Shown here: positions 7,179 through 61,395 of the stretch, one piece after another
Numbering within the stretch: the stretch's first letter is position 1
Layout: every line of letters starts with the position of its first letter
Made by a program: the position numbers and the translations under genes
The notes under the pieces: model-generated
Databases searched by the model: none
Told to the model about the DNA's origin: nothing
What the model saw: only the letters and a program-made list of their open reading frames with translations
Assembly (NCBI GenBank): GCA_047946875.1
Contig: CP181398.1
Location: 1,064,409-1,128,408, forward strand
Direction: 5' to 3'
DNA: 64,000 nucleotides
From: Candidatus Kerfeldbacteria bacterium
GTDB lineage: Bacteria; Patescibacteriota; Patescibacteriia; UBA10025; JAHIVO01

Positions 7179-8079
7179 TTCCAAAATACTTCAAAAAATA
7201 GGTCAAATTCTAATATATGTAGTTATATTTATTTTTATTGGGAAAATACTTTCAAATAATTGGTCAGACATTTCAGTATCTTTAAAATCAGCAAATTATT
7301 TATTACTACTATCAGGAATATTTCTAATAGTACTAATTTTATATTTACAAAGTTACATTTGGCATCTTCTACTTAAACAATCAAATAATACTCTAAAATT
7401 TTCTGCTTCATTTATTACCTATTTCAAATCAGTTATTACTAGATACCTTCCGGGTGGTATATGGGTATATTTTGCAAGAACATACCTTACGGGTAAACTA
7501 GGTTTTAAAAAAACCCAAATTATTTTTTTGATTCTTATTGAATCGCTTTTTGTAGTTGCCACTGGATCCATATCAATATTATTATTTCAGCCGCCTTCGG
7601 ATATATATATCATCATTGCAATTTTATCTATCATACTTACAATTACTGGATTTGTTTTTATTTTTTCACCTTCTTTTTTTATTAAGATTTATAAAACTTT
7701 CTACAACAAAATACTATCAATTATTCCCCTAAATAGGCAAACCATAGCTAAAGCAACTTCTCTATATTTTATTTTATGGATATTATCTGGATTATTTTTA
7801 TATATTATTATTAACGCTTTTACTCCACTCGGTGTAGATAACATTCCATCATTAATTGGTATTTATGCAATAAGCTGGGTAGTTGGATTCGTTGTATTTT
7901 TTATGCCCTCAGGGATTGGTGTTAGAGATGTTTTTTTGATTATTTTACTAAGCACTATTGTCAGTGTACCAATCGCCACATTAGTTGCATTGATAGCAAG
8001 AATAGTATTCTTGATAGGTGAGATAATTTGTTTTTTTATAAGCTTAATTATTGAAAAAAAACATCCCTTACCAAATTAG
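7165..8079 (+). CDS. Flippase-like membrane protein (UPF0104 / LPG-synthase-TM-like)
   Basis: About 8 TM helices and the motif YLPGGIWVYFARTYL, which matches the lPggiGe..R signature of this family as I recall it. This family is often found with glycosyltransferases. Confidence 0.5.
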   Translation: MMRTSSKILQKIGQILIYVVIFIFIGKILSNNWSDISVSLKSANYLLLLSGIFLIVLILYLQSYIWHLLLKQSNNTLKFSASFITYFKSVITRYLPGGIWVYFARTYLTGKLGFKKTQIIFLILIESLFVVATGSISILLFQPPSDIYIIIAILSIILTITGFVFIFSPSFFIKIYKTFYNKILSIIPLNRQTIAKATSLYFILWILSGLFLYIIINAFTPLGVDNIPSLIGIYAISWVVGFVVFFMPSGIGVRDVFLIILLSTIVSVPIATLVALIARIVFLIGEIICFFISLIIEKKHPLPN

Positions 8080-8099
8080 GCTAAAAGTTTATTTTTTAG

Positions 8100-8777
8100 C
8101 TATTTTTTTAAAATAAAAATATTTGTAGGAAAAAAGAATTGTATATTTTTTAACAGCCACACTGGCCACCCACTAAATATTTTAACCTGACTGTTGAATT
8201 TATTCGGGTTATTTAATATATATGAACTATATTCTTTAACCTCAAACCTTGTGTTAATACTTTTTTTCAGATTAATATAACATGGTAAATCTATATTCTC
8301 CAGAGGCGCTTCAAATCTAATATATTTACTTAAGTACTTTACTATTAAATAATTAATTTTATTTGGAAAATAATGAACAAATGGAATTTTATAATGAGGT
8401 TCGATAGGGAAAATTCTGTTTGGTGAACCAAAATATGCAATTCCACCATCTTTTAAAAGTCGTTTTATTTCATTTATATGTTTTTCATGATTCCCCGTGT
8501 GTTCAATAACCATATTAGAAATAATAATATCAAATGAAGAATCCTGACATTCTACATCCCCACTAATGATATTGTAAAAGTTTCCATCTTTTTTCAATCT
8601 ATAATCACTAATATCTGCATAACTTACTCGATTGTCATTTGAAAAATAATCCCCGATCAACCCAGATCCAGATCCAAGATCTAATATTCTAAAATTCTTA
8701 ACTGATTTACCTAGATAATCTTTTAGAACTGCTTCAATTTTCTTATATTTTATTTCTCGATTTTTTTCTGAATACAT
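8100..8777 (-). CDS. Class I SAM-dependent methyltransferase
   Basis: Motif I ILDLGSGSGLIGDY. A Methyltransf_11-like post-motif reads MVIEHTGNHEKHINEIKRLLKDGG. Confidence 0.8.
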   Translation of the reverse strand: MYSEKNREIKYKKIEAVLKDYLGKSVKNFRILDLGSGSGLIGDYFSNDNRVSYADISDYRLKKDGNFYNIISGDVECQDSSFDIIISNMVIEHTGNHEKHINEIKRLLKDGGIAYFGSPNRIFPIEPHYKIPFVHYFPNKINYLIVKYLSKYIRFEAPLENIDLPCYINLKKSINTRFEVKEYSSYILNNPNKFNSQVKIFSGWPVWLLKNIQFFFPTNIFILKK

Positions 8778-30737: not shown

Positions 30738-30887
30738 AGTTTTTATTTTTTTAACCTTTACTTACATATATATTATACAGTAAATGCAGGATTATTCAAA
30801 AATTTTATCTCTCCTAATAACTCCTCCATATACCCAAAACCTCAATGATTTTGAGATTAGTTCAAATAAGTTTACAGTAGCCATCCG

Positions 30888-30930
30888 AAAAAAAATAAAG
30901 TCTCCGTTTTAAAAAACAGAGACTTTTTAG
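30888..30930. terminator. Bidirectional hairpin terminator downstream of the OMP-like gene
   Basis: AAAGTCTC…GAGACTTT stem, flanked by A8 and T5. Confidence 0.55.
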
Positions 30931-30944
30931 TTTGAAAGAACTTG

Positions 30945-31571
30945 CTACAGCAGAGAAATGCCAAGATTAAATGTAAAGCCATTATTACTGTCGGTTCTAA
31001 ATGGTCCACCAGAGTAAGAATTCATTATATGTTGTAAAGAGAATCCTATAAAAACCATTCCTGAGCCTGTTTTAATGCCAAACTCTGCACTCAATAAGAA
31101 ATAGCTTTGTTTCAGACGTGCTAATGAACCATCCTGAATATTCGTATTCATCTTCACACCAGATAAATCATAAACACCGGTTATCTTCCCTCTCCAATGG
31201 ACAAATGATAATTGCCTACTTCGAGAGTAAAGCTTGGACCAAGGTGTGGCCACAAAAGTACCTACACCTAGTTTTGATTTTTCTTCCTGATAGCTTCCAG
31301 CTGATGCATTCGCATAATGAGTATAAACTAGCGCAAAGTTGAAAAACCTTGCCAACTTATAGCTTGTCGTAACTCCAAAAGCACCGGAGAGCTTGATGTC
31401 GGTTGATGGCACATGAACAGTCTGTCCACCTGGCAGATACACAGACACTTCGAGAGGATTCAAATGACCTCGCTTGCGTTGAGCTTCGGCCGGTATAGCA
31501 AACATCCCTATTGGTAATAATATTATTACCAAAAACTTTAGCATTGTTGAACGGAAAATACAGCTCTCCAT
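30945..31571 (-). CDS. Outer-membrane-type beta-barrel protein candidate (OmpW/OmpX-like small porin fold)
   Basis: Signal peptide …MLKFLVIILLPIGMFAIPAEA. Repeated amphipathic alternating-hydrophobic strands (VSVYLPG, FALVYTHY, LGVGTFVATPW, LSFVHWRG, SYFLLSAEFGIK, GFTFNLGISLL). Strong AAGGAGG ribosome-binding site. GC is visibly higher than its neighbours. Confidence 0.45.
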   Translation of the reverse strand: MESCIFRSTMLKFLVIILLPIGMFAIPAEAQRKRGHLNPLEVSVYLPGGQTVHVPSTDIKLSGAFGVTTSYKLARFFNFALVYTHYANASAGSYQEEKSKLGVGTFVATPWSKLYSRSRQLSFVHWRGKITGVYDLSGVKMNTNIQDGSLARLKQSYFLLSAEFGIKTGSGMVFIGFSLQHIMNSYSGGPFRTDSNNGFTFNLGISLL

Positions 31572-31793
31572 TTTTTCCTCCTTGGAAAAATAATGGTATT
31601 AATTAGTCCCCTAACTAACACCTTTTTAAATTAATAAGTATTCGTCCTATGAATATTTTTTCAAATAACAATTTTAATTGCTAACAATAACACATATATA
31701 GTATTTGTCAATAGTCATAAAGGTGGTAATTGCATAATAAAAAACCGGATCTTCTTTTGGAAGTCCGGCTATAATTTTTGATAAACTTTTGAA

Positions 31794-32021
31794 TTAGTTT
31801 ATCTGTTCAACTTGCTCTTGAGATGACTCAATATTATTTAAGTCTTTATTGTAATCCGAGACGGCAAAGGCGGCTATGCCCACGATTACAAGAACTATCA
31901 CTAAGATAAATATGATTTTTACTCCCTTACCCAGAGCGCCTGTCAATTCAGTATCGTTAGTACGCTTGTGGTAAGTTTGATTTCCCTGCCGTTGCTTGAT
32001 TTTCCTTATTTTCTTACTCAT
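31794..32021 (-). CDS. Small single-pass membrane protein
   Basis: Start at ATG 32019-32021 (MSKKIRK…) behind an AGGGAG ribosome-binding site. One TM helix (IIFILVIVLVIVGIAAFAV). Confidence 0.4.
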   Translation of the reverse strand: MSKKIRKIKQRQGNQTYHKRTNDTELTGALGKGVKIIFILVIVLVIVGIAAFAVSDYNKDLNNIESSQEQVEQIN

Positions 32022-32152
32022 TAGAAATCTCCCTGAAATCAAATGTTTACCTTATGTTAACATATAAATATATATCAAATTATTCTTTTTGTCAAGAGTA
32101 GTATTCATTTGATCATTTGCTAAGATTCGCGTAAAATAAATCATGTAACCAT

Positions 32153-35950: not shown

Positions 35951-36196
35951 TCACTTTCTTTCAGTAATATATTCAAAACACATCCCTATAAATAGAAATA
36001 TGGCAACCATAGAACCAACACTTCCATTGGCCATTAAGATATTGCCAATTGTTGGTTTCATCATTGAATGCTCCAACATTACCATTGCAAAAAATGGAAA
36101 AGTGAATAAACATATCAAGGTAACAATAAAACCACTGCCCAATGAAAAGCCGATTGCTTTCAAGTAACCAAAGCTTCGTTTTACATTACTGTTCAT
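35951..36196 (-). CDS. Hypothetical small membrane protein (alternative to the overlapping + ORF 35931..36167)
   Basis: Two hydrophobic segments. Both strands are open here, and the choice of strand is weak. Confidence 0.3.
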   Translation of the reverse strand: MNSNVKRSFGYLKAIGFSLGSGFIVTLICLFTFPFFAMVMLEHSMMKPTIGNILMANGSVGSMVAIFLFIGMCFEYITERK

Positions 36197-36338: not shown

Positions 36339-37532
36339 TTATTTAACTATTTTTACAAACTTTCTTTTTCCAACTTGGAGCACCATACCATCAAGAACTC
36401 TTACTTTTTCTTTCCAGTCTGTTATTTGCATGCCATCAAACTTTACTGCCCCCTGTTCTATCATTCTTCTTGCATCACTTTTAGAATTTACTAACCCACT
36501 TTCAGCAACTACATCTAATAGGGTATAATTATCTTCTTTACCTATTTTATATTCAGGCATACTGTCTGGATTTTCTTTTTCCTTAAACATTTTATTAAAT
36601 TCATCCTCTGCTTTATCTGCCTCTTTTTCACTATAGTATATAGTTACTAGTTCTCGAGCTAATTTAACTTTATAATCACGTGGATTATCTCCTTTTTTCA
36701 TTCCTTTTGTAAAACTTTCGATATCTTTAAGGCTTACATCTGTTAAAAGCGTAAAATATTTAATTATCAAATCGTCGGGGATAGACATCGTCTTCCCAAA
36801 CATATCTTTTGCAGTATCATCAAGATCTATTGTATTACCAATACTCTTGCTCATCTTTTCTTTACCATCCGTCCCCTCAAGTAGTTGAGAAGTCATTATA
36901 TCTTGTGGTGCTTGATTATAGCTTGGCTGAATCTCTCTAGCTGCTAACATATTAAATGTTTGATCGGTACCACCCAACTCTACATCTGACCTCAAAGCAA
37001 CAGAATCATATCCTTGTAATATTGGGTACAAAAGCTCGTGTATCCAAAGTGGTTTTTTTTGTTGAATCCTTTTTTTGAACATGTCTCTCTCTAATATTTG
37101 ATTTACCGTAAATAAAGAGGCTAGCTCAAAAAGTTCTGCGAAGTCCATATTATTATGCCACTCTGAATTCTGTTTAAATTCTACTTTCGATAAATCTAAA
37201 ACTTTTCCTACTTGTTTTTTGTAGGACTTCATATTCTTCTTAATTTCTTCTGTGGTTATTGGTTTACGTGCCGACATCTTTCCTGAAGGATCGCCAATCT
37301 TTGCTGTAAAATCACCAATCAAGAATATAACCTGGTGGCCAAGCTCCATAAACTGTTTTAATTTTCTCAAGACTACGGTATGTCCTAAATGAAGCTTTGG
37401 AGCAGTCGCATCAACACCTAATTTTATCCTTAATTTCTTACCTGATTCAAGCTTGTTAGTTAAGCTTTTATTTACTATAACCTGATCAACGCCTCGTTTT
37501 AATAATTCTTCTATTTTTTCTATTTTATTCAT
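36339..37532 (-). CDS. tyrS: Tyrosyl-tRNA synthetase
   Basis: HIGH-type KLHLGH and KMSKS motifs. C-terminal S4-like domain. Confidence 0.95.
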   Translation of the reverse strand: MNKIEKIEELLKRGVDQVIVNKSLTNKLESGKKLRIKLGVDATAPKLHLGHTVVLRKLKQFMELGHQVIFLIGDFTAKIGDPSGKMSARKPITTEEIKKNMKSYKKQVGKVLDLSKVEFKQNSEWHNNMDFAELFELASLFTVNQILERDMFKKRIQQKKPLWIHELLYPILQGYDSVALRSDVELGGTDQTFNMLAAREIQPSYNQAPQDIMTSQLLEGTDGKEKMSKSIGNTIDLDDTAKDMFGKTMSIPDDLIIKYFTLLTDVSLKDIESFTKGMKKGDNPRDYKVKLARELVTIYYSEKEADKAEDEFNKMFKEKENPDSMPEYKIGKEDNYTLLDVVAESGLVNSKSDARRMIEQGAVKFDGMQITDWKEKVRVLDGMVLQVGKRKFVKIVK

Positions 37533-37602: not shown

Positions 37603-38502
37603 ATGCTAAAATATATTTTAGGAATAGATATCGGAGGAACTAAAATACAAACTGGATTAGTAAATACTAATCTAAAAGTTATTCAGGGTAAACAATCAGT
37701 AATGAAAAGAAATACAAAGAGTCAGGCACTTAATAGTATTTTTAACTCTATCGAAGATTATAACCCAAAAGATATTAAAGCGATCGGCATCTCAATAACC
37801 GGCCTTGTAGACAGCAAAAAAGGCATTGCTATAAAAAGCCCCAATCTTCCAAAGGGATTTTTCAACGTGCCTTTAACTAAACTAATAAGTAAAAAATTTA
37901 AAAAACCTACTTTTATTGAAAATGATGGCAATTGCATTGCTTTGGCTGAAGCAATAGTAGGCGAAGGTAAAAATAATAAAATTGTTTTTAGTTTAACATT
38001 AGGGACTGGTATTGGCAGTGGTCTCATAATTAATAAAAAACTATACACCGGATCTAAAAACATATTCGAATTTGGTCATACTTTTATTTCTAATGAAAAA
38101 CAAAAATGTAATTGTGGACAATATGGGCATTTTGAATCTTTTGTAACTGGTGACGGAATTCAAAGAACATACAAAAAACTAACCAATAAGAACAAAACTT
38201 CTTATGAAATAATAAAAGAAGCAAAACTAAACAAGTCTAGTGCTAAAAAAGCGGTCGTTCTTACTAGTCACTATCTAACATTAGGTCTTGCAAATATAAT
38301 CAATTCTTATAATCCTGATATTATTGTTCTTGGTGGGGGGTTAGCTAAATTAAACGTACTTACCAAGCCAGCCATAAAAAATATTTATTCTCACCTATCA
38401 TCGCCTGAATATAAAAAAACCAAAGTTAAAGTATCAAAACTAGGTTACGATGCAGGCGTACTTGGCGCAGCTCTACTAACAAGGTATACTAGAAAAAAGT
38501 AA
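37603..38502 (+). CDS. ROK-family sugar kinase (glucokinase-like)
   Basis: ILGIDIGGTKIQ. Zn motif CNCGQYGHFE. Confidence 0.85.
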   Translation: MLKYILGIDIGGTKIQTGLVNTNLKVIQGKQSVMKRNTKSQALNSIFNSIEDYNPKDIKAIGISITGLVDSKKGIAIKSPNLPKGFFNVPLTKLISKKFKKPTFIENDGNCIALAEAIVGEGKNNKIVFSLTLGTGIGSGLIINKKLYTGSKNIFEFGHTFISNEKQKCNCGQYGHFESFVTGDGIQRTYKKLTNKNKTSYEIIKEAKLNKSSAKKAVVLTSHYLTLGLANIINSYNPDIIVLGGGLAKLNVLTKPAIKNIYSHLSSPEYKKTKVKVSKLGYDAGVLGAALLTRYTRKK

Positions 38503-38506
38503 TTAT

Positions 38507-41143
38507 ATGCCTATCCCACACCTAAAAGAACCAAATTTTAGAGTAAAAAAAATTGGTGCGAGAGTAAGCCAATTTAATAGAAGAAACCGAAAAAAAAATA
38601 AACCAAGAGAAAAACTCGGTAAACTTCAATGGCTTAAATCTAACTGGTTATTAGTATTAATCATTCTTGCTTTTACATTTGTTATTTTAATAATTAGTGC
38701 TTTTGCGTGGTATTCACGTGACCTTCCTGATCCCGATAAAATAATGGCAAGAACAATAGCTGAAAGCACTAAAATATATGCTAATGATGGAACTTCTTTA
38801 TTATATGAAATACATGGAGACGAAAAACGCACCTTAGTAGAAATTGAAGATATTCCTGACATTATGAAACAAGCAACTATAGCAATTGAAGACCATGATT
38901 TTTATGAACATGGTGGCTTTTCATTGGCTGGTATTATTAAAGCAACTTGTCATGAGGTTTTTGGTAATCTTGGTGGACTATGCCCACAACGTGGTGGCTC
39001 TACTATCACTCAACAGTTTGTAAAAAATGCGATATTAACTAACGAAAGATCTTATACAAGAAAGATAAAAGAACTTGTACTTTCTTATCAGTTAGAAAAA
39101 CAATTTGAAAAAGACCAAATACTACAACTATATTTCAATGAAATTCCTTTTGGTTCTACTTTATATGGAGTAGAATCTGCTTCTCAATCTTTCCTAGGTA
39201 AACCGATACAAGATATTACTTTATCTGAGGCAGCTTTTCTAGCATCTATCCCAAATAGACCAACTTACTATTCTCCTTATGGTAATAATACAGAAGCTCT
39301 CTCTAACCGTCTTCACACCGTATTAAACGAAATGGTTAAACTTGGATTTGTAACAGAAGAAGAAGCGGAGGAAGCAAGAAATGATAATATATTAGCTAGA
39401 CTCAAACCAAAGTATGAAAATATCACGGCCCCACATTTCGTTTTTTATGTACGTGAACAGCTCAGTGAAAAATATGGAGAGAAAGTAATTGAGCAGGGTG
39501 GCTTACGAGTTACCACTACTATTGATATTGAAAAACAAACAATCGCCGAAGAAGTACTTGAAACCCAGGCAGAAAAAAATAAAATTAATTATAATGCTAA
39601 TAATGCTGCTCTTGTTTCTATCGATACAAAGACTGGTCAAATATTAGCCATGGTAGGGTCAAAAGATTATTTTAATGAGGAGATAGACGGCAATGTTAAC
39701 GTAACTCTTAGACCCAGACAACCAGGATCTTCTTTTAAACCTTTAGTATATTTAACCGCCTTTAATCAAGGTTTTACACCAGAAACCATCCTATTTGACC
39801 TCGTTACCAAATTTAAAACAGGTGCTGCCGACTATGAACCAAAAAACTATGATTTAGGAGAACGTGGCCCAGTCTCCATGAGAGAGTCCTTAGCTGGTTC
39901 TCTAAACGTAACCGCTGTAAAGACATTGTATTTAGCTGGAATTGAAAATGTTCTTGATGCCGCAGATAGTTTTGGTTACTCAACCCTTGGAGACAGAAGT
40001 AGGTTTGGATTATCTCTAGTTTTGGGTGGTGGTGAAGTAACTCTTTTAGACCACACTTCGGCTTTTGCTACTTTTGCAAGAGAAGGTGTATATCACCCAG
40101 TTGTATCTATCTTAAAAATTGAAGACCATAATGGAAAAGTGTTGGAAGAATATGAAGCACGAGAAGATCAAGTTTTTAACAAAGAAAATGTTCGTACACT
40201 TAACAGCATTCTCTCGGATGATGGAGCTCGTGCCTATGTATTTGGTACCGGTAGTGTTTTAACTCTTCCAGGACGCCCTGTAGCAGCGAAAACAGGAACT
40301 ACTAACGACTACCGTGATGCTTGGACTATTGGTTACACCCCTTCAATTGCTACTGGGGTCTGGGTAGGTAATAATGATAATTCAGAAATGAGACGGGGTG
40401 CTGCAGGATCTGTTGTTGCTGCACCAATTTGGCACAACTATATGAAACAAGTAGTTACAGGTCCAGTTGAAACTTTTCAAACAGCACCTGCCAACACAAC
40501 TACTAAAGATATCTTACAAGGGAACATAGAAGGGGAAACCGCTCTTCAAGTAGACAGTATTACTGGAAAACTTATTCCTGAAGAATGTAAAGACACTTAT
40601 CCAGAACTATTTATTGAAGAAAAAATATTTAGAATTATTCACAATATTTTACACTATGTAGATAAAAGTAATCCCGATGGTCCTGTTCCAGCCGATCCTA
40701 CCATTGATCCACAATACGAAAGATGGGAAGAACCTGTAAGACGTTGGGCAACAGAAAATGACTACCTAGAAACTAAACCAGAGCTAGGAGATTGTGCATT
40801 ACGTGCAGTAGAAAATCAACCTACTATTAAAATTACCTCACCAACAAAAAATGACACCGTAAGCACAAACTCTCTTGCATTAACTGTTAGTGCAAGCGCC
40901 TCAACCACCTCTACAAGCGCTCTAGAAAGAGTTGATTACTATATTGATGATGTGCTAATAGGAACTTCTAAAAAGGCTCCTTTCAGCCTTTCCCATACTA
41001 TTAGTGATACAACTTTTGAAAATGGTTTTCACGACTTAAAGGTTATTGTCTATGATAAATTAGAAAATTTTTCTTCTGAGACAGTTATCTTTAATTATTT
41101 AGTTGGACAACCAACAACAAATTCAAATACTAATTCTTTATAA
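38507..41143 (+). CDS. mrcA: Class A penicillin-binding protein (GT51 transglycosylase plus transpeptidase) with extra C-terminal domain
   Basis: EDHDFYEHGG and GGSTITQQ (GT51). SGSSFKP, SLN and KTGTT (transpeptidase). N-terminal TM helix. Confidence 0.9.
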   Translation: MPIPHLKEPNFRVKKIGARVSQFNRRNRKKNKPREKLGKLQWLKSNWLLVLIILAFTFVILIISAFAWYSRDLPDPDKIMARTIAESTKIYANDGTSLLYEIHGDEKRTLVEIEDIPDIMKQATIAIEDHDFYEHGGFSLAGIIKATCHEVFGNLGGLCPQRGGSTITQQFVKNAILTNERSYTRKIKELVLSYQLEKQFEKDQILQLYFNEIPFGSTLYGVESASQSFLGKPIQDITLSEAAFLASIPNRPTYYSPYGNNTEALSNRLHTVLNEMVKLGFVTEEEAEEARNDNILARLKPKYENITAPHFVFYVREQLSEKYGEKVIEQGGLRVTTTIDIEKQTIAEEVLETQAEKNKINYNANNAALVSIDTKTGQILAMVGSKDYFNEEIDGNVNVTLRPRQPGSSFKPLVYLTAFNQGFTPETILFDLVTKFKTGAADYEPKNYDLGERGPVSMRESLAGSLNVTAVKTLYLAGIENVLDAADSFGYSTLGDRSRFGLSLVLGGGEVTLLDHTSAFATFAREGVYHPVVSILKIEDHNGKVLEEYEAREDQVFNKENVRTLNSILSDDGARAYVFGTGSVLTLPGRPVAAKTGTTNDYRDAWTIGYTPSIATGVWVGNNDNSEMRRGAAGSVVAAPIWHNYMKQVVTGPVETFQTAPANTTTKDILQGNIEGETALQVDSITGKLIPEECKDTYPELFIEEKIFRIIHNILHYVDKSNPDGPVPADPTIDPQYERWEEPVRRWATENDYLETKPELGDCALRAVENQPTIKITSPTKNDTVSTNSLALTVSASASTTSTSALERVDYYIDDVLIGTSKKAPFSLSHTISDTTFENGFHDLKVIVYDKLENFSSETVIFNYLVGQPTTNSNTNSL

Positions 41144-41199
41144 CTTATCAAATAAAAAATATCCCGGATAATCGAGGATACTTTTTTTATTATTTCTAA

Positions 41200-41228
41200 T
41201 TGACAAACATATCCCTCTATACTAATAT
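41200..41228 (+). promoter_or_regulatory. Sigma70-type promoter TTGACA-17-TAATAT upstream of 41279 gene
   Basis: Read directly. Followed by the ribosome-binding site AAGGAGG and a TTG start. Confidence 0.45.
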
Positions 41229-41278
41229 AATATGGACAATATTATAAGTAACTAAATGCTAAATGCAAGGAGGTAGTA

Positions 41279-42067
41279 TTGAGTAAATTATCGTTCATTA
41301 CAGTAAAAGACACTAGTTCTCTGTCAACAGACGGAATACTTCACTTATTTATGGAGTCTTGTCCAAACGGGTATGAGACCTGGAAAAAGTTTCGAGACGA
41401 AGCAATGAGTCTTGTGGCAAGTGCAAACAAAATTCAAAGCGTGATATTCGATATTTCCGGAATTGAAATCCCAGACAAAGAATGGTTTTTTATCAGCGGA
41501 GCTCTTCATTCCATACGAATGAGTATCATGTCCAAAAAATACAATTTTGCACTTCTCTCTGGTGAAGAACACAGAAAAAACCGTAAGCTATATCAGATTT
41601 TATATCACACCCTCTATGCTCAAGACAGCATGAAGGAAGCGCAAGAATTCTTGGGCAAAGCACACATGCAGAATCCTGGTACTTACGAGTACACTATTAA
41701 GTCCATGGCGGGTTACGCTGAGATAAGGTTTGTAGTTAGCCAAATATACCCGATTGTATTCCCTATGAAATCCCTCAAGCGAGATATCAATGCTCTGATT
41801 AGCGATAATATTGTTAATATCGTCATCTGTAGCAATTTCGATCTCTATGGTGAATCGTCACGTAGTGAAATGAGGGGACATATGATCGCTTGGGTCTTCA
41901 ACGAACTTCTTGAAGTTCTCAATGTAAAACTCCCTAAAGGAGTTACTATCAGATTTGCTGATCCGACACTCAATACAGCTAGGTTAGCGGCTAAACAAGA
42001 CTGGCCCATTGATGATGAAGCTGATAGCTCAAAAAAGAAATTTCTCAAACCATGGGGGAAAAAGTAA
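41279..42067 (+). CDS. Hypothetical protein (two internally similar halves); island gene
   Basis: TTG start 5 nt after AAGGAGG. GC by eye about 40% against about 30% in the flanks. The halves share the pattern VIFDISGIEIPDKEWFFISGALHSI / IVICSNFDLYGESSRSEMRGHMIAWVFNEL. Confidence 0.55.
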   Translation: MSKLSFITVKDTSSLSTDGILHLFMESCPNGYETWKKFRDEAMSLVASANKIQSVIFDISGIEIPDKEWFFISGALHSIRMSIMSKKYNFALLSGEEHRKNRKLYQILYHTLYAQDSMKEAQEFLGKAHMQNPGTYEYTIKSMAGYAEIRFVVSQIYPIVFPMKSLKRDINALISDNIVNIVICSNFDLYGESSRSEMRGHMIAWVFNELLEVLNVKLPKGVTIRFADPTLNTARLAAKQDWPIDDEADSSKKKFLKPWGKK

Positions 42068-42141
42068 CCAACATAGTGGTTAGTGTAAAGAGGCGTTTAT
42101 AATGTCTCTTTTTTTATTTAAGAAATAATTCAGCTGATAAG

Positions 42142-42170
42142 TTGACAATATATGATTTGTATGATAAATT
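42142..42170 (+). promoter_or_regulatory. Sigma70-like promoter TTGACA-17-TAAATT upstream of 42216 gene
   Basis: Read directly. A third copy of the same hexamer pair lies at 42750-42778 with no ORF downstream. Confidence 0.4.
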
Positions 42171-42215
42171 AATACGTTCAATAATAAAGCAATATTATAA
42201 AAAGTGGAGGAAATA

Positions 42216-42608
42216 ATGGCTGAAACTATTGAGCAACGCTGCTCTATACCAAAATGGCACTGGTTCAATGTCATGAAAGATCTGGAAACACAAGGGAAAC
42301 TCCCCGGTGTAACTATTGACCCTCTTTCTGTGAAAGAGAATGGCTGTGCAGGAGAAACAGCTAAGGGCACCAGATTTTATTTTTCTTGGATCAAAGACAC
42401 TTTTCTGTTACTAAGTATGGTACCAGAAGAGTTAGAACTAATAGAGGCTTTCGCCGCTATCGTTGAATACCGCCCTTTTTGCAGGTATACTACCAATTCA
42501 GAAGATGGTACCGAGATGATCACCTTCGAATGGGATAAAAAAGACTCGCAAGGAAGATTTGTGGAGCTACAGAAAGAAAGAAAAGAGAATCTCCAGCCTG
42601 TTGAATAA
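42216..42608 (+). CDS. Hypothetical 130-aa protein; island gene
   Basis: ATG 5 nt after GGAGG (the track start at 42204 is an upstream GTG). No family recognised. Confidence 0.5.
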   Translation: MAETIEQRCSIPKWHWFNVMKDLETQGKLPGVTIDPLSVKENGCAGETAKGTRFYFSWIKDTFLLLSMVPEELELIEAFAAIVEYRPFCRYTTNSEDGTEMITFEWDKKDSQGRFVELQKERKENLQPVE

Positions 42609-42844
42609 AAAGTATCCTGATATTTGAGAATACGACTATATATAACAGTCAGCTCTGTTAACAACTGTTGACATTCTCCTCCCTAAGACCCGAGCAAGTC
42701 TCTAAACTGCTCATTTTTTATTTCAAAAATTCGTAATAATATTTGTAGATTGACAATAAAGCCATTATTAACTAAATTGAATAAACTTTTAAATTGTACA
42801 AAAAAAATACCCTGCTCAATTGAGGATATTTTTTTATATTATAT

Positions 42845-43945
42845 TTATTGTTTAATCGGCATGATTATATAAACGTAGTCTTTTTTATTTTTTGGTCTTA
42901 ATAAACCAGGATTTGTATTTGTATTAATTTCTAATATACACTCTTCATCTTCAATATTTTGTAAACCTTCTAATAAAAAACGATAGTTAAAAATAATATT
43001 ATTTTCTATACCTTCTAATTTAACTTCTTGTTTCGCTTCACTTTCTCCAATTTGCATATTATTTGCAGAAATTGTAATTTCACTATTTTCAATTAAAAAT
43101 TGTATTAGTATGTCATTACTCCCTGTTTTGCAAAACAAACTAGCCCTTTTAACTGTTTTAATTAAATCACCTGTATTAACTATTGCCAAGGTTTTATGTT
43201 CTTTTGGGATAATTTGTTTATAGTCTGGATATTTTCCTTCTATCAAACGAGATGATAGTTTTGCACCAGCAATAGAAAATACTACTTGATTATCATTTAT
43301 CTTAATTTGTAACATTTCATCTTCATCTCCAATTATTCTTACTAACTCTTGAATTGTTTTAATTGGGACAATAAAATTCTGTTCTTTAACTTCTTTATTT
43401 AAGGATATTTCTTTTTCGGCTAACCTATAACTATCAGTGGCGGCAAGAACTAAAGAATTGTTAATAAAATTAAAAAATACTCCATTTATTTCAGGTCTTG
43501 TCTCGTCAAAAGAAACAGCAAAAAAGACTGAATTTAGGGCATTTTTTAAGATTTTTCCGTCTATTTCAATATTTTCTTCTGATTCAACTTGTGGTATTAA
43601 TGGAAATTCTGATGCTTCCATACCCTTCATTGAAGTTTTTGAATTACTACTTTTTATTTTTAAATTTTGTTCTTCAAGCTCTATTTCAATATTTTCTTTT
43701 GGTAATAAATTAATATAATCACTTAAAGTTTTTGCTTGGACAGTAAAAGATCCTTCTCTTTCTACTTTTCCTCTCACCTGACAAATAATCCCCATCTCTA
43801 AATTTGTGGTCATTAATTTTAAAATTCCATTTTCTGTTTTTAATAAAACATTACTAAGAATTGGTAAAGAAATATTTTTACTTGCAATATGACTTACTAG
43901 TTGTAATCCTTTAGATAAGTTTTCTTGTGTACAAGTTATCTTCAT
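42845..43945 (-). CDS. dnaN: DNA polymerase III beta sliding clamp
   Basis: MKITCTQENLSKGLQLVSHIASKNISLPILSNVLL… Three-domain length. Lies downstream of dnaA. Confidence 0.9.
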   Translation of the reverse strand: MKITCTQENLSKGLQLVSHIASKNISLPILSNVLLKTENGILKLMTTNLEMGIICQVRGKVEREGSFTVQAKTLSDYINLLPKENIEIELEEQNLKIKSSNSKTSMKGMEASEFPLIPQVESEENIEIDGKILKNALNSVFFAVSFDETRPEINGVFFNFINNSLVLAATDSYRLAEKEISLNKEVKEQNFIVPIKTIQELVRIIGDEDEMLQIKINDNQVVFSIAGAKLSSRLIEGKYPDYKQIIPKEHKTLAIVNTGDLIKTVKRASLFCKTGSNDILIQFLIENSEITISANNMQIGESEAKQEVKLEGIENNIIFNYRFLLEGLQNIEDEECILEINTNTNPGLLRPKNKKDYVYIIMPIKQ

Positions 43946-44198
43946 ATATTTATTATATTAAGTTTTTATATATAAATAGTATTAGTAATAATAGAGTGGA
44001 AAAGTTAATAACTTTTTTTATTTAGAAAGAAAGGTTAGAGAAAAGTTATTTTTTTAAAGTTTTTTTCTGTTAATATTTTGAGAGTTATAAGTGGATAGAT
44101 GGGGGAAACTTTTTATGTTTTTTTTAACTTGATTTAACTTGATGAGTTTTTAAACATTTAGATAACAGATTGTTAATAATATATCCACAGTAAAAAAA
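43946..44198. promoter_or_regulatory. dnaA-dnaN spacer with DnaA-box-like motifs (possible second oriC segment)
   Basis: ATATCCACA at 44181-44189, AAGTGGATA (reverse complement TATCCACTT) about 44091-44099, TTATC cores. AT-rich. Confidence 0.35.
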
Positions 44199-45575
44199 TT
44201 ATTTATTGTATAGACGTTGTCTGATTAGATTAATATCTTGTCTAATTTTTTCATCTTTATCTAAACATTTTTTTATTTTTTCATAAGCATGCATAGCGGT
44301 TGTATGGTCACGTCCACCTAATTCTTGTCCAATTGTTGGGTAAGAACATTTAATCTCTTCTCTTAATAAAAACATTGCTATCTGTCTAGGAATAACGAGT
44401 TCTTTTTTACGACTACTACCTAGTAAATCATCTTTTGGTTTATCAAAAAAAGAAGCAACCATATTAATAATTTGTTTTGTTGTAATTGCGCTGTCACGAT
44501 GTTTGTAGCTGGATACACTGCTAAGAATATTTTTAACAGATTCAACGCTAGGAGCTGTATTGTTAAGCTGATGAAAGGCAATTATTCTATTTAAAGCCCC
44601 TTCTAGTTCACGAACATTACTTTGTATATTATTAGCAATAACAGCAATTATATCAGCATTAAGCTGGTGGTCTTTCTCTTTACATTTTGCGTTTAATATT
44701 GCAATTCTTGTCTCATAGTCAGGTAAATTAACGTCTGCAATCATTCCCCACTCAAAACGAGAAATAAGCCTATTTTCAAGTGCAGGAATTGCTTTTGGCG
44801 GACGATCAGAACTAATTACTATTTGTTTATTTTGTTGATGTAGGGCATTAAAAGTATGAAAAAACTCTTCTTGTGTTCCCTCTTTTCCTGCCAAGAATTG
44901 AATATCATCAATAAGTAATAAATCGGCAGTCCGGTAGGTGTTTTTAAATTGTTCGGTACTACCCTGACTAATGGATTTAATAAAATCATTAGTGAATTTT
45001 TCGCATGTTACAAAAATTACTTTTTTGTCAGGGCTCTTTTCTGTTATACTGTGGGCAATTGCTTGTAGTAGGTGAGTTTTTCCTAGTCCAGATCCTCCAT
45101 ATATAAATAATGGATTATAAACCTCTCCAGGGCGCTCTGCTACGGCTAGACAGGCGGCGTGAGCAAGTTCATTTCCCTTACCTACAATAAAACTTTTAAA
45201 AGTATTTGAATTATTAAAACCCGAGCCGTTTTTTACAGCATTAGTAGAAGAATTAGTGTTAGAAGAATCTAAAACAACTTCAGTTTTTGTAACCGGGGTT
45301 TTTGATTCTTCTTTTTGTTTGTTTGAATTAGTTTCTACTTGGTATGTAGCTTCGGATATTTTATTATTAGTTGCATTTTGTAGCGATTGTAATATCTCTT
45401 TATGATATTTATTTTCTAACCAGGTTTTTGTAAAAGCATTTGGTACACCAATAACAATTTTATTATTTTCAAGTGATGAAATAAAAGTATTTTTAAACCA
45501 TGTGGTGAAATTTGCCTTACTTAGAGAGAGCTCTAATTCACCCAAGGCGGCTTGCCAGAGTTGTTCTTTATTCAT
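44199..45575 (-). CDS. dnaA: Chromosomal replication initiator DnaA
   Basis: GGSGLGKTHLLQAIAH (Walker A), LLIDDIQFL, C-terminal DNA-binding …GRDHTTAMHAYEKI. Confidence 0.95.
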   Translation of the reverse strand: MNKEQLWQAALGELELSLSKANFTTWFKNTFISSLENNKIVIGVPNAFTKTWLENKYHKEILQSLQNATNNKISEATYQVETNSNKQKEESKTPVTKTEVVLDSSNTNSSTNAVKNGSGFNNSNTFKSFIVGKGNELAHAACLAVAERPGEVYNPLFIYGGSGLGKTHLLQAIAHSITEKSPDKKVIFVTCEKFTNDFIKSISQGSTEQFKNTYRTADLLLIDDIQFLAGKEGTQEEFFHTFNALHQQNKQIVISSDRPPKAIPALENRLISRFEWGMIADVNLPDYETRIAILNAKCKEKDHQLNADIIAVIANNIQSNVRELEGALNRIIAFHQLNNTAPSVESVKNILSSVSSYKHRDSAITTKQIINMVASFFDKPKDDLLGSSRKKELVIPRQIAMFLLREEIKCSYPTIGQELGGRDHTTAMHAYEKIKKCLDKDEKIRQDINLIRQRLYNK

Positions 45576-45708
45576 ATGAATAATAAATTGTTATTAACGA
45601 AATTTTGAGTACAAAGTATATATTACCATATTAACTATAATTAAAATATATAGAATACTTGATAATATGTGTATAAATTGTTAATATCATGTGGGTATAA
45701 TTTATAGA

Positions 45709-45737
45709 TTGACCCAGTGTTTTATTATTGATATAAT
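45709..45737 (+). promoter_or_regulatory. Sigma70-type promoter TTGACC-17-TATAAT for rpmH, inside the rpmH-dnaA spacer (putative oriC region 45576..45764)
   Basis: Read directly. The spacer also holds box-like TGTGTATAA and TGTGGGTAT. Confidence 0.5.
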
Positions 45738-45764
45738 GCATTGTAATTAAGTAAACTTTTATAT

Positions 45765-45902
45765 ATGCCAAAAAGAACCTATCAACCAAAAACAAAGCAA
45801 CGAAAAACAAAACACGGTTTTAGAAAGAAAATGCAGTCTAAAAGTGGGCAAAAAACTATTGCCAGAAGAAGAGCAAAAGGAAGAAAGAAATTAGCTTCAT
45901 AA
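45765..45902 (+). CDS. rpmH: 50S ribosomal protein L34 (not in the supplied ORF track)
   Basis: [45 protein letters not shown], classic L34. 45 codons. Confidence 0.9.
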
Positions 45903-45908
45903 TATTTT

Positions 45909-46253
45909 ATGTTGCCCAAAGAAAGGCGTATTGTTAAGCTGTCTGAGTGGAATAAACTACATAAGCGTGGTATTGGAGCTCATTCTGCTGAAATAGTATT
46001 GAAATATATTAAAAATAATACCAAAATTACTCGCTTTGGTTTTATTGTAAGCACTAAGATTAGCAAAAAAGCAGTAGATAGAAATTTGATTAAAAGAAGA
46101 ATGCGAGACGTGATAGAAAAGAAATTATCAAATATTAAAGAAGGTTACGATGTTATCTTAATTGCTAAAGTGAAGATAAAAAGTAATAATTATTCCGAAA
46201 TTGAACAAATGATTAATCAACTTTTAAGAAAAGAAAGGTTGTTAACCAGATAA
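45909..46253 (+). CDS. rnpA: RNase P protein component
   Basis: …RFGFIVSTKISKKAVDRNLIKRRMRD…, the conserved RNR motif. Position after rpmH. Confidence 0.85.
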   Translation: MLPKERRIVKLSEWNKLHKRGIGAHSAEIVLKYIKNNTKITRFGFIVSTKISKKAVDRNLIKRRMRDVIEKKLSNIKEGYDVILIAKVKIKSNNYSEIEQMINQLLRKERLLTR

Positions 46254-54246: not shown

Positions 54247-54498
54247 GGCTTTTTATTTTACTAATTCCCAATTTGGATCAGCATCGAGTTTTTTCCAATC
54301 AGAAAAATCTTTTTGTTTTGCATGGTGATATCCAGCGATGGCAATCATCGTGGCATTATCAGTACAAAGCTTGAGAGGAGGATAGTGATACTTAGTATTA
54401 GGGAGTTCTTTGGTGACAGCTTGTCCTAGTTGTTCTCGTAGAGGTTTGTTTGCCGCTACACCACCAGCCAGGAGGACTGTTTTAATTTTAAGTTTTTT
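54247..54498 (-). pseudogene. Orphan duplicate of the 3' end (last ~75 codons plus stop) of tsaD; left arm of a perfect ~250-bp direct repeat
   Basis: 54251-54497 is base-for-base identical to 55768-56014 as far as I can read. That stretch is the C-terminus of tsaD, …PLKLCTDNATMIAIAGYHHAKQKDFSDWKKLDADPNWELVK*. Confidence 0.8.
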
Positions 54499-54690
54499 TT
54501 CTGTTTTGCGATGTCTGAAATTTTTCTTTGACTATTTTTTTGTATTCATAAATTATAGTATACTGAAAAAATACACTAAGAACATGTTATTGAGGTTTTA
54601 TTGGATTTTAAGTATATGGTAGACTTAATAATATTAACGCAAATATATTTAGTATAAAATATATATTTATTGCAAAGTAAAAGAAAAAGT

Positions 54691-55760: not shown

Positions 55761-56014
55761 GGGCGTTTTTATTTTACTAATTCCCAATTTGGATCAGCAT
55801 CGAGTTTTTTCCAATCAGAAAAATCTTTTTGTTTTGCATGGTGATATCCAGCGATGGCAATCATCGTGGCATTATCAGTACAAAGCTTGAGAGGAGGATA
55901 GTGATACTTAGTATTAGGGAGTTCTTTGGTGACAGCTTGTCCTAGTTGTTCTCGTAGAGGTTTGTTTGCCGCTACACCACCAGCCAGGAGGACTGTTTTA
56001 ATTTTAAGTTTTTT
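55761..56014. repeat. Right arm of the ~250-bp direct repeat (within intact tsaD 3' end)
   Basis: See the 54247..54498 feature. Identity starts at the tsaD stop codon region and ends about 82 codons upstream of the stop. Confidence 0.8.
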
Positions 56015-56791
56015 AGCAGCTTTGATAGTTTTTTTGACTAAGACGTCGACGGCAGCTTGTTGAAAGCTAGCAGCTATATTATCGACGGGGACGTTTTTAT
56101 TGTTAAATTGTTTTTTAACAAGATAAAGAACGGAGGTTTTCAGACCAGAAAAGCTAAAATCAAAATTATTTTGGTTTATCATTGGGCGCGGAAATTTATA
56201 ACTATAGGGATCACCCTTTTTAGCTATTTTTTGAATCATTGGACCGCCCGGATAGCCAAGTTCTAATAATTTTGCTACTTTATCAAAAGCTTCTCCAACC
56301 GCATCATCACGAGTTTGACCGATTAACTTATAATTATTATGTTTCTTTATTTCAATTAATTCTGTGTGACCTCCAGAGACAACTAAGCAAAGTGCTGGTA
56401 ATCTTAAATTTGGATTTTCATACCAATTAGCATAGATATGTCCTTCCATATGATTTAATCCTACAATTTTTTTGTTCCAGGTAACACTTAATGTTTTTGC
56501 AGTCTGTACTCCAACTCGAAGTGAGGTAATTAACCCAGGCCCTTTAGTTACCGTAATATTAGAAATATCTTTTGGTGTTATTTTTGCTTTTGTAAGAGCA
56601 GTTTCTAAGACGGGAATAATATTAACTACATGTTCTCTTGCGGCTACTTCTGGAACTACTCCGCCATATTTTTTATGAGTTTTGATCTGTGATGCTACAA
56701 CGTGTGACAGAATTTCAAAACGACCAGCCGTGGCCTTGACCACACTGATAGCTGTTTCATCACAAGAAGATTCAATTCCTAGAATTATCAT
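55769..56791 (-). CDS. tsaD: tRNA N6-adenosine threonylcarbamoyltransferase TsaD (Kae1/Gcp family)
   Basis: MIILGIESSCDETAISVV…. The metal-binding HxEGH region reads NHMEGHIY. Confidence 0.9.
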   Translation of the reverse strand: MIILGIESSCDETAISVVKATAGRFEILSHVVASQIKTHKKYGGVVPEVAAREHVVNIIPVLETALTKAKITPKDISNITVTKGPGLITSLRVGVQTAKTLSVTWNKKIVGLNHMEGHIYANWYENPNLRLPALCLVVSGGHTELIEIKKHNNYKLIGQTRDDAVGEAFDKVAKLLELGYPGGPMIQKIAKKGDPYSYKFPRPMINQNNFDFSFSGLKTSVLYLVKKQFNNKNVPVDNIAASFQQAAVDVLVKKTIKAAKKLKIKTVLLAGGVAANKPLREQLGQAVTKELPNTKYHYPPLKLCTDNATMIAIAGYHHAKQKDFSDWKKLDADPNWELVK

Positions 56792-60059: not shown

Positions 60060-60105
60060 AAAAGAAAACCCGAGTCACATCCTATGTGAATCGGGTTATT
60101 ATTTG
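60060..60105. terminator. Bidirectional hairpin between convergent VanW and 60184..60807
   Basis: AACCCGAGTCACAT-CCT-ATGTGAATCGGGTT (14 bp, one mismatch). A-rich before it and T-rich after. Confidence 0.6.
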
Positions 60106-60183
60106 ATTGTATATTTATGTAGTAGGTACATGATTCCCTCCAATCGATTTGATTATTGAAGGGAGAAGACGAGGGGGGTACAA

Positions 60184-60807
60184 CTATGAACCGTTTGCAG
60201 TTTTGTCACTCCCGCTTTCATTAAATATGTTACTCCACCAAGGCTCTTCTTCTGTCGAGATTGGTCGTTCTTTGAGTTTTGTAAAAAGTCTCTGATCAAG
60301 TCCGGTGATCGCTACGGTTACAATCTGACCAGATTCCAAACTAGTAGCATCGTTAATTTGCCAGGGATCCCAGTGGGTTGTTTTGGTATGTTCCCATTTG
60401 TTTATAATCATGGGATCTTCCATAACACTAGTTGGGGTTAGGGAGATATTGTATCCTCCTAAAATTGGATCGAGATCTCCAGTAATTTGGTAATCACCGG
60501 ATGATAGGACATGTGTTCCTTGGTCTGAAGTATCAGCAATATCACCTTCTTGATAATTGCCAGTAATATTCATACCAAAACTGAAGAAAAACAGCATGAG
60601 GAATGGTGCTATTGTTCTAACTGGCTTGCCGAGGTACTTATGTGCACCAAATTTGCGAATCGAAAATGCAAGGGCAATACTAAGCAGCATTACTATTACA
60701 AAGAGGATTGTTAGTGGGACACTAGTACTTGTGAAAAGGCTCATAAATGGGTCATAGAGAATTGTTTTGACACCATCTGCAAACCATTTCAATAGATATT
60801 CAAGCAT
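60184..60807 (-). CDS. Hypothetical membrane protein (two N-terminal TM helices plus ~130-aa extracytoplasmic domain); island gene
   Basis: Ribosome-binding site AAGGAGAT 6 nt before the ATG. GC by eye above 40%. Confidence 0.5.
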   Translation of the reverse strand: MLEYLLKWFADGVKTILYDPFMSLFTSTSVPLTILFVIVMLLSIALAFSIRKFGAHKYLGKPVRTIAPFLMLFFFSFGMNITGNYQEGDIADTSDQGTHVLSSGDYQITGDLDPILGGYNISLTPTSVMEDPMIINKWEHTKTTHWDPWQINDATSLESGQIVTVAITGLDQRLFTKLKERPISTEEEPWWSNIFNESGSDKTANGS

Positions 60808-60858
60808 AATTATCTCCTTGAAACTTATTAAATTACTTCCTTGTCTTGTTTTGGATTG

Positions 60859-61041
60859 TTAATCCAAACTATCTGGCGGTAAAGATGATCGTCCGCAATC
60901 ACCACCGATATCATCACGCTGATGATCTTCGAGGCGATAATTTGCTGCCTCATTGTCATCTCTGTATCCAGCATCACCTGGGTTGGTAGCCTTAATGACT
61001 TTGATGTTGAATCCGTTACAGACTGGACAATGTCCTGTCAT
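60859..61041 (-). CDS. 60-aa Cys-containing (CPVC) acidic small protein, first gene of a two-gene operon
   Basis: MTGHCPVCNGFNIKV…. Ribosome-binding site AAGGAGGT 5 nt before the ATG. Confidence 0.45.
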   Translation of the reverse strand: MTGHCPVCNGFNIKVIKATNPGDAGYRDDNEAANYRLEDHQRDDIGGDCGRSSLPPDSLD

Positions 61042-61395
61042 TGTTATACCTCCTTAGTGTATTTTAATATGTTAATGATACTATCTATATATACAAACAA
61101 CCGGCAACCAATTAATATAAGTTAATGCTCACTAATCTGCAGTCAAGAAGGTTGTTATAAGGGAAAATTAAGAATAAATCCCCAATAATCCTTAAATCAA
61201 ACTCCATGCTTGTCGTGACTGCAGGTTAGTAAACACCACTTGTTTAACTAATAAGCTTCCGGCTGTAAATAAACGAAAAATGTGATATTTAAAGGTCTAA
61301 AATTAATAACAGTCAATATTAACACAAGCTTTTCATCTTGTCAAGGGCGGTTTTAAATGATAAGATCTTAGTATTAATAATATAATTAAATATTT

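Follow-up and report, generated by a model that had tools for sequence, protein, structure and literature searches.

The locus raises the question of how a 1.7 kb segment with two small genes came to lie between the cell-wall synthase gene PBP1A and the convergent gene dnaN of Candidatus Kerfeldbacteria, and whether the two genes belong together. The source is a low GC (31.1%) metagenome-assembled genome (MAG) of an ultra-small bacterium of the Candidate Phyla Radiation (CPR, Patescibacteria), and the window analyzed was a 64 kb stretch of this genome, in which the segment occupied positions 41144–42844. The first open reading frame (ORF1; 41279–42067, + strand) encoded 262 aa from a TTG start codon, and the second (ORF2; 42216–42608, + strand) encoded 130 aa from an ATG. 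An initial annotation had described a self-contained cassette of foreign composition, wedged between two housekeeping genes, and had suggested a toxin–antitoxin, defense or selfish module. The foreign origin was borne out and the module was not. At a probability of about 0.7, the segment is a small horizontally acquired islet between PBP1A and dnaN, made up of two independent units and an orphan promoter.

Insertion Between PBP1A and dnaN

A DnaN scan of 185,579 species genomes yielded 28 loci, which together with metagenomes gave 63 dnaN loci in all; tblastn returned a full-length dnaN match in 59 related loci and a partial match in 4 truncated contigs. The closest relatives found were L008 and L009, with dnaN 65 and 58% identical, respectively, and the metagenome collection held no relative above 51–60% dnaN identity. 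Both L008 and L009 had the gene order of the window (TyrRS / ROK-PBP1A→ ←dnaN-dnaA), with the convergent stop codons of PBP1A and dnaN only 55–88 bp apart and one hairpin of its own in each spacer. Homologs of ORF1 and ORF2 were absent from all 63 dnaN loci, L008 and L009 included. Because the closest relatives have PBP1A and dnaN 55–88 bp apart, the segment is, as judged from gene order, a real insertion between the two genes. The left flank, PBP1A (38507–41143, + strand), encoded a class A penicillin-binding protein (Pfam Transgly, Transpeptidase and Big_7) with an intact C-terminus, residues 1–877 aligning with the L008 orthologue, and the right flank, dnaN (42845–43945, − strand), encoding the DNA polymerase III beta clamp, was intact as well. 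More distant relatives had 3–6 kb between dnaN and PBP1A, occupied by conserved native genes and not by variable cargo, so that this junction is no general hotspot.

The composition of the segment set it apart from its surroundings. GC content was 0.394 for ORF1 and 0.417 for ORF2 versus 0.311 for the window, and GC content at third codon positions (GC3) was 0.40 and 0.39, respectively, versus 0.14–0.27 (about 0.21) for native genes, with values of 0.20 for PBP1A and 0.14 for dnaN. Based on synonymous-codon likelihood, ORF1 deviated most strongly (z −5.5) and ORF2 ranked fourth (z −4.0) among 54 genes. The native genes of the window, PBP1A among them, had A/T-rich leaders without a Shine–Dalgarno (SD) motif, the exceptions being two other small islets. 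Among Parcubacteria, only about 48% of 16S rRNAs are reported to show an anti-SD motif (PMC9297842), with which the SD-less native genes agree; the 16S gene of this genome lies outside the window. If loss of the anti-SD applies here, the SD sites of the segment may be relics of SD-using donors and not functional signals. Since GC3, codon likelihood and SD motifs all stand out in an SD-less gene set, it is well supported that the segment is compositionally foreign and was horizontally acquired, and the empty site and the composition together argue for a gain in the lineage of the window. The junction comparison and the GC and codon statistics, both proposed in the initial annotation, thus agree with its view of a foreign segment wedged into a short spacer, of higher GC than native genes that lack SD sites.

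Organization of the Segment

Consensus scanning placed three promoter-like sites on the + strand, all with a perfect TTGACA and, as described earlier, a 17-nt spacing and no gene behind the third. P1 (TTGACA-17-TAATAT; 41200–41228) preceded ORF1, P2 (TTGACA-17-TAAATT with a TG before the −10 element; 42142–42170) preceded ORF2, and the orphan P3 (TTGACA-17-TAAATT; 42750–42778) had no ORF downstream, with a consensus match of 10/12, equal in quality to P1 and P2. The ribosome-binding motifs that had been reported for both genes, AGGAGG for ORF1 (41268–41273, + strand) and GGAGG for ORF2 (42206–42210, + strand), were each located 5 nt upstream of the start codon. ORF1 was followed by a predicted intrinsic terminator, T1 (42087–42118, + strand), with an 11-bp stem, a T-run and a folding energy of −10 to −11 kcal/mol (z −2.7). 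The 3′ untranslated region of ORF2 (42626–42723, + strand; RNA fold −21.3 kcal/mol, z −2.7) comprised a long hairpin (42626–42678) and then the predicted terminator T2 (42692–42723, + strand; stem 42692–42712 plus T-run), whose tail resembled that of T1 (21 nt, 86% identical). Because T1 and P2 lie between them, ORF1 and ORF2 are predicted to form two separate monocistronic units and not an operon, which speaks against a toxin–antitoxin, defense or selfish two-gene module.

The pattern TTGACA-N17-TAnnnT occurred eight times in 64 kb versus 1.6 expected, always in intergenic DNA. Three sites were in the segment, and the remaining five were located upstream of two further islets and of three native genes. 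As this is the host's own promoter type, the promoters are uninformative on the origin of the segment. A looser sigma-70 scan revealed no enrichment in the segment region (60 sites found versus 54.5 expected).

The borders of the segment carried an A-tract/hairpin/T-tract repeat (both copies unstranded). The left copy, C1 (41154–41187; RNA fold −10.6 kcal/mol, z −2.4), was located just past the PBP1A stop codon, and the right copy, C3 (42802–42835), just before the dnaN stop codon. C1 and C3 formed a 34-nt direct repeat with 79% identity and were reciprocal best matches window-wide, with scores of 41–43 versus a background of 15 ± 3.5; they were also the sole matches in the window to AAAATAYCC-N8-16-GGATAYTTTT, for which none was expected. 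A weak third copy, C2 (42607–42633, unstranded), began at the stop codon of ORF2 and had C1 as its best non-self match in the window (score 30 versus 25 for the next-best). The motif TAYCCYG-N5-10-GAGRATA, which was defined post hoc, occurred solely at 41160, 42613 and 42808. All three hairpins were imperfect palindromes. C1 is likely the terminator of PBP1A, of a bidirectional type, and C3 likely that of dnaN, as its fold is more stable on the − strand (−10.8 kcal/mol, z −3.3) than on the + strand (−7.8 kcal/mol).

ORF1

ORF1 and ORF2 matched exactly the NCBI proteins ACNFW9_05335 and ACNFW9_05340, respectively, whose annotated lengths of 238 and 92 aa are likely underestimates. Scans of both proteins with Pfam, NCBIfam and PADLOC returned no match at E up to 10, scans with PHROGs returned non-significant matches only, and PDB sequence searches with profiles and with single sequences found nothing. 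In keeping with the initial annotation, which had recognized no family for either, the Pfam and NCBIfam searches placed neither protein in a housekeeping family.

A word-indexed search of 5.8 billion proteins found no relative of ORF1 besides itself, an exhaustive phmmer search against 1.84 billion representatives likewise recovered only the query, and no homolog was found in viral contigs or in any retrieved locus. Going by these searches, ORF1 is a lineage-restricted ORFan. Its product had been thought to consist of two tandem copies of one domain. The halves were without sequence similarity (BLASTP E = 12); the repeat persisted at the level of predicted structure, in that a single-sequence AlphaFold model of low confidence (predicted local distance difference test, pLDDT, 56.6) had two consecutive β-β-α-β-α-β-α units. 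This predicted α/β architecture provides moderate evidence that ORF1 is a tandem STAS-like protein; there was no Pfam STAS match at E up to 10. The canonical phosphorylatable serine site of STAS partner-switching proteins is DSSG, and the position expected for it in ORF1 reads, by eye, DKEW. No gene for an anti-sigma kinase or a PP2C phosphatase was found near ORF1, whose neighbors are PBP1A and ORF2, and the fold of ORF2 was without a match to GHKL kinases. A classical partner-switching role is thus not supported, and since the phosphorylatable serine of DSSG is missing, a binding scaffold is, if the model is right, a likelier role for ORF1 than a switch.

The ORF2 Family

ORF2 encoded a small soluble α+β protein of an unannotated family, with its start fixed by an N-terminus, MAETI, that was conserved in homologs. 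A first search recovered homologs in 25 clusters at 43–67% identity, and a profile search recovered 116 clusters. Family members were about 120–145 aa long, all hypothetical and none with a Pfam domain, a Pfam scan of all 25 members of the first set giving noise only. Their hosts were Patescibacteria (Staskawiczbacteria, Microgenomates and others), DPANN archaea (Woesearchaeota and Nanoarchaeota) and one KSB1 bin. In addition, a phage contig of 230 kb, from a jumbo phage, encoded a homolog of the ORF2 core (residues 41–120; hhalign probability 99%, E 4e-18), whose neighbors matched PHROGs strongly. This homolog (L077, positions 7896–8276 of the IMG/VR contig) was 126 aa long, lacked the N-terminal conserved Cys and Trp, and was surrounded by small phage ORFs, a phosphoesterase and an NMN adenylyltransferase-like gene.

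ORF2 homologs were solitary in 11 of 11 distinct other genomic contexts, with unrelated neighbors and never an ORF1-like partner; examples included positions after GroEL, between Sua5 and SHMT, beside S15/PNPase, and near EF-P/DnaB. Most of the CPR loci read had a homolog with its own TTGACA promoter, SD site and terminator. The GC3 of the homologs was host-like in most of the 11 loci, with outliers in L001 (+2.8), L037 (+5.2) and L040 (−2.9 standard deviations), and because these deviations go in both directions they point to repeated transfer and not to selection for GC-rich codons. A Microgenomates genome carried a 62-aa resolvase-like fragment (L002, 5639–5827; L004, 1415–1603) about 170 bp upstream of the homolog. 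The same block of ORF2 homolog, methyltransferase and DnaB had upstream neighbors that differed between assemblies, suggestive of rearrangement or mobility at the locus.

Family-wide invariant positions were mostly hydrophobic or aromatic, and conserved polar residues were few (E3, T4, D22, Y91, T103, E105, and R114), the two cysteines not being universal. Based on these invariants, ORF2 is most likely a non-enzymatic binding protein, or an adaptor or structural protein, and not an enzyme. The structure model of ORF2 was confident, and no solved structure matched it well. A bolder view, which we regard as rather doubtful, is that ORF2 represents a new family with an unseen fold, a self-sufficient promoter–gene–terminator unit that is passed among jumbo phages, CPR bacteria and DPANN archaea and could act in conflict or attachment among symbiont, host and virus (e.g., anti-defense or immunity), with SD-bearing, GC3-rich mini-islets of SD-less Parcubacteria genomes as “chromosomal morons,” a class of recent imports that could be recognized and counted. 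With about 116 clusters spanning CPR, DPANN and a jumbo phage, the family is a candidate Pfam entry and may bear on what ultra-small symbionts exchange.

Two Further Islets in the Window

Two more islets had the same signature of a TTGACA promoter, GGAGG or AGGAG motifs, GC3 of 0.33–0.42, terminators, and two ORFs each without a family match. The second islet (about 30880–32140, − strand) had a TTGACA-17-TATATT promoter (32095–32067) and encoded a 75-aa membrane protein (31794–32021, − strand; SD motif GGGAG). Behind a terminator came another TTGACA promoter-like site and the gene for a protein of 208 aa whose N-terminus resembled a signal peptide (30945–31571, − strand; SD motif AGGAGG, GC3 0.34, codon z −5.2), with a terminator of its own. 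The third islet (about 60060–61340, − strand) had a TTGACA-17-TAATAT promoter (61344–61316) with a leader of about 270 nt, a gene for a 60-aa Cys-rich protein (60859–61041, − strand; SD motif AGGAGG), and a gene for a 207-aa membrane protein (60184–60807, − strand; SD motif AGGAG, GC3 0.34, codon z −4.5), then a strong terminator. Neither islet gave a Pfam match or had any sequence in common with the segment at 41144–42844. With three islets in 64 kb, a GGAGG motif combined with raised GC3 cleanly flags recent imports in this SD-less genome, and the same marker offers a cheap inventory of gene flow into SD-less CPR lineages.

Alternative Explanations

The proposal that ORF1 and ORF2 form a toxin–antitoxin, defense or selfish two-gene module drew on a compact, self-promoted segment of foreign composition with two small genes of no assigned function, and the presence of an ORF2 relative in a jumbo phage and of a resolvase fragment or a Y1 transposase near some ORF2 loci would suit it. 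It is nevertheless improbable, given that no PADLOC, Pfam or NCBIfam model matched, that PHROGs matches were non-significant, that T1 and P2 are predicted to separate the genes, and that ORF2 homologs stand alone in every context examined; ORF1, having no relative, leaves no conserved pairing. The features of a toxin–antitoxin system were thus missing: predicted co-transcription, family homology and conserved pairing. Domains of phages, integrases, transposases and recombinases were not found within about 10 kb of the segment (10 neighboring proteins scanned), which speaks against a selfish module and, as regards an integron gene cassette, means no recombinase among these 10 proteins. It is unlikely, too, that the segment is native and owes its unusual codon usage and SD sites to strong expression of resident genes which relatives have lost. 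Promoters of the host consensus type, the high gene dosage of an origin-proximal location, and the strong promoters and SD sites of most ORF2 homologs elsewhere would agree with such genes, but both closest relatives found lack the segment, GC3 of ORF2 homologs is host-like or deviates either way and so gives no sign of consistent selection for GC-rich codons, relatives of ORF1 were nowhere found, and the distribution of ORF2 is patchy and crosses domains.

The orphan promoter P3 invites a reading of its own, namely that P3 and C3 together encode a functional small RNA, or one that regulates the 3′ end of dnaN in antisense. Nothing but C3 lies downstream of P3, about 25 nt further, and the hairpin and T-run at this distance from a promoter as good as P1 and P2, as well as the weaker fold of C3 on the + strand, which makes read-through into dnaN antisense conceivable, lend this some appeal. 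The predicted product of about 50 nt, however, would be almost wholly the A/U-rich C3 terminator hairpin, and Rfam had no match in 41144–42844, whether at E ≤ 1 or at the gathering score, nor were there relatives for covariation. Across the whole window, Rfam at gathering threshold found a single tRNA elsewhere, and a scan of 40000–46000 at E ≤ 1 found only an AsdA-like match (45051–45101), outside the segment. Moreover, the stretch from the T2 tail to P3 aligned loosely with that from the T1 tail to P2 (score 55 versus 39.8 ± 6.6 for shuffles), as would fit a truncated transcription unit. The small-RNA reading therefore seems rather unlikely, and most simply P3 would be the 5′ remnant of the donor's next transcription unit, cut short, or what is left of a decayed third unit.

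The preferred reading, that of a horizontally acquired islet, would have the islet enter the short spacer in which convergent PBP1A and dnaN terminate, leaving both intact. Each unit would be transcribed from its own TTGACA-17-TAnnnT promoter, with a GGAGG site ahead of its ORF and an intrinsic terminator behind it. P3 may mark a break within a third transcription unit at the end of the imported DNA, or the decay of a third gene, and C1 and C3 may be a duplication of an ancestral shared terminator, with one copy for each neighbor. ORF1 and ORF2 would not be a functional pair, ORF2 being a wandering, solitary member of its family. Several points weigh against this reading or parts of it. The closest relatives are distant (dnaN 58–65% identical) and give no nucleotide-level empty site, so that loss of the segment in both L008 and L009, instead of gain, is still formally conceivable. 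The likeness of C1 and C3 consists mainly of A/T runs and blocks of 5–7 nt, and the loop cores are dissimilar, so that two terminators may have converged; the second and third islets had no convincing flanking repeats, and hence there is no common insertion signature. The promoters and terminators of the segment are predictions from consensus scanning and RNA folding, the STAS assignment of ORF1 comes from a model with a pLDDT of 56.6, and the biochemical functions given for both proteins are inferences from sequence and modeling.

Genes and Other Features Around the Segment

The flanks consisted of housekeeping genes (TyrRS, ROK, PBP1A, dnaN, dnaA, rnpA, YidC, TsaE, and ValRS). To the left of PBP1A were TyrRS (36339–37532, − strand) and the ROK kinase gene (37603–38502, + strand), and to the right of dnaN was dnaA (44199–45575, − strand), then rnpA, yidD and yidC. 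The dnaN–dnaA spacer (43946–44198) was very AT-rich (GC about 0.20) and coincided with a sharp change in the sign of GC skew; it is likely oriC. With the E. coli type consensus, DnaA boxes were not enriched over chance in this spacer or near the segment. On the opposite strand within dnaA, the sub-threshold Rfam match at 45051–45101 (+ strand) was to AsdA, an antisense RNA of dnaA mRNA, with 25.9 bits versus a gathering score of 52 (E 0.039), and is probably due to chance.

Two observations concerned other parts of the window. A gene for an 81-aa membrane protein (35951–36196, − strand) was located behind a perfect TTGACA-17-TATTAT promoter (36274–36246), in a 760-bp stretch without an ORF of at least 100 aa. 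Two spurious ORFs (54410–54622 and 55926–56063, + strand) had an identical 28-residue N-terminal translation, VTACPSCSRRGLFAATPPARRTVLILSF, an identity from which a DNA repeat of about 90 nt, relatively GC-rich and with copies about 1.5 kb apart, can be deduced; tRNA and Rfam searches gave no match to this repeat.

Comparison with Known Systems

The segment resembles type II toxin–antitoxin operons in having two small, adjacent, same-strand genes in foreign DNA, but differs from them in that its genes are predicted not to be co-transcribed, belong to no known family, and are not conserved as a pair. ORF1 likewise differs from STAS proteins and anti-sigma-factor antagonists (SpoIIAA, RsbV, RsbS, and the C-terminal domain of SLC26) by its DKEW, the lack of a Pfam match, and the lack of a kinase or phosphatase gene nearby. 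Closer are horizontally acquired islets and ORFans, with which the segment shares atypical GC3 and codon usage, hypothetical proteins, a patchy distribution, and intergenic insertion; unlike these, its genes are SD-marked in an SD-less genome, and the ORF2 family spans CPR, DPANN and a jumbo phage. Taken on its own, the segment is an ordinary case of a small islet that was gained by horizontal transfer and carries hypothetical genes.

A further parallel is the moron of tailed phages. In the concept of Juhala and Hendrix, this is an autonomous promoter–gene–terminator unit of deviant composition between genes that are adjacent in relatives, acquired by an unknown mechanism (PMC4378225). Like morons, the segment is absent between the same adjacent genes in relatives, has an own promoter and intrinsic terminator predicted for each gene, and deviates in composition from its neighbors, with no recombinase or recognizable insertion signature. 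Unlike morons, it comprises two units plus an orphan promoter, not one gene, and resides in a CPR chromosome beside dnaN with no phage genes within about 10 kb. Three of four moron features were thus found in the segment, the fourth being residence in a phage or prophage genome, and because of this difference in residence it is best called a chromosomal moron-like islet and not a moron.

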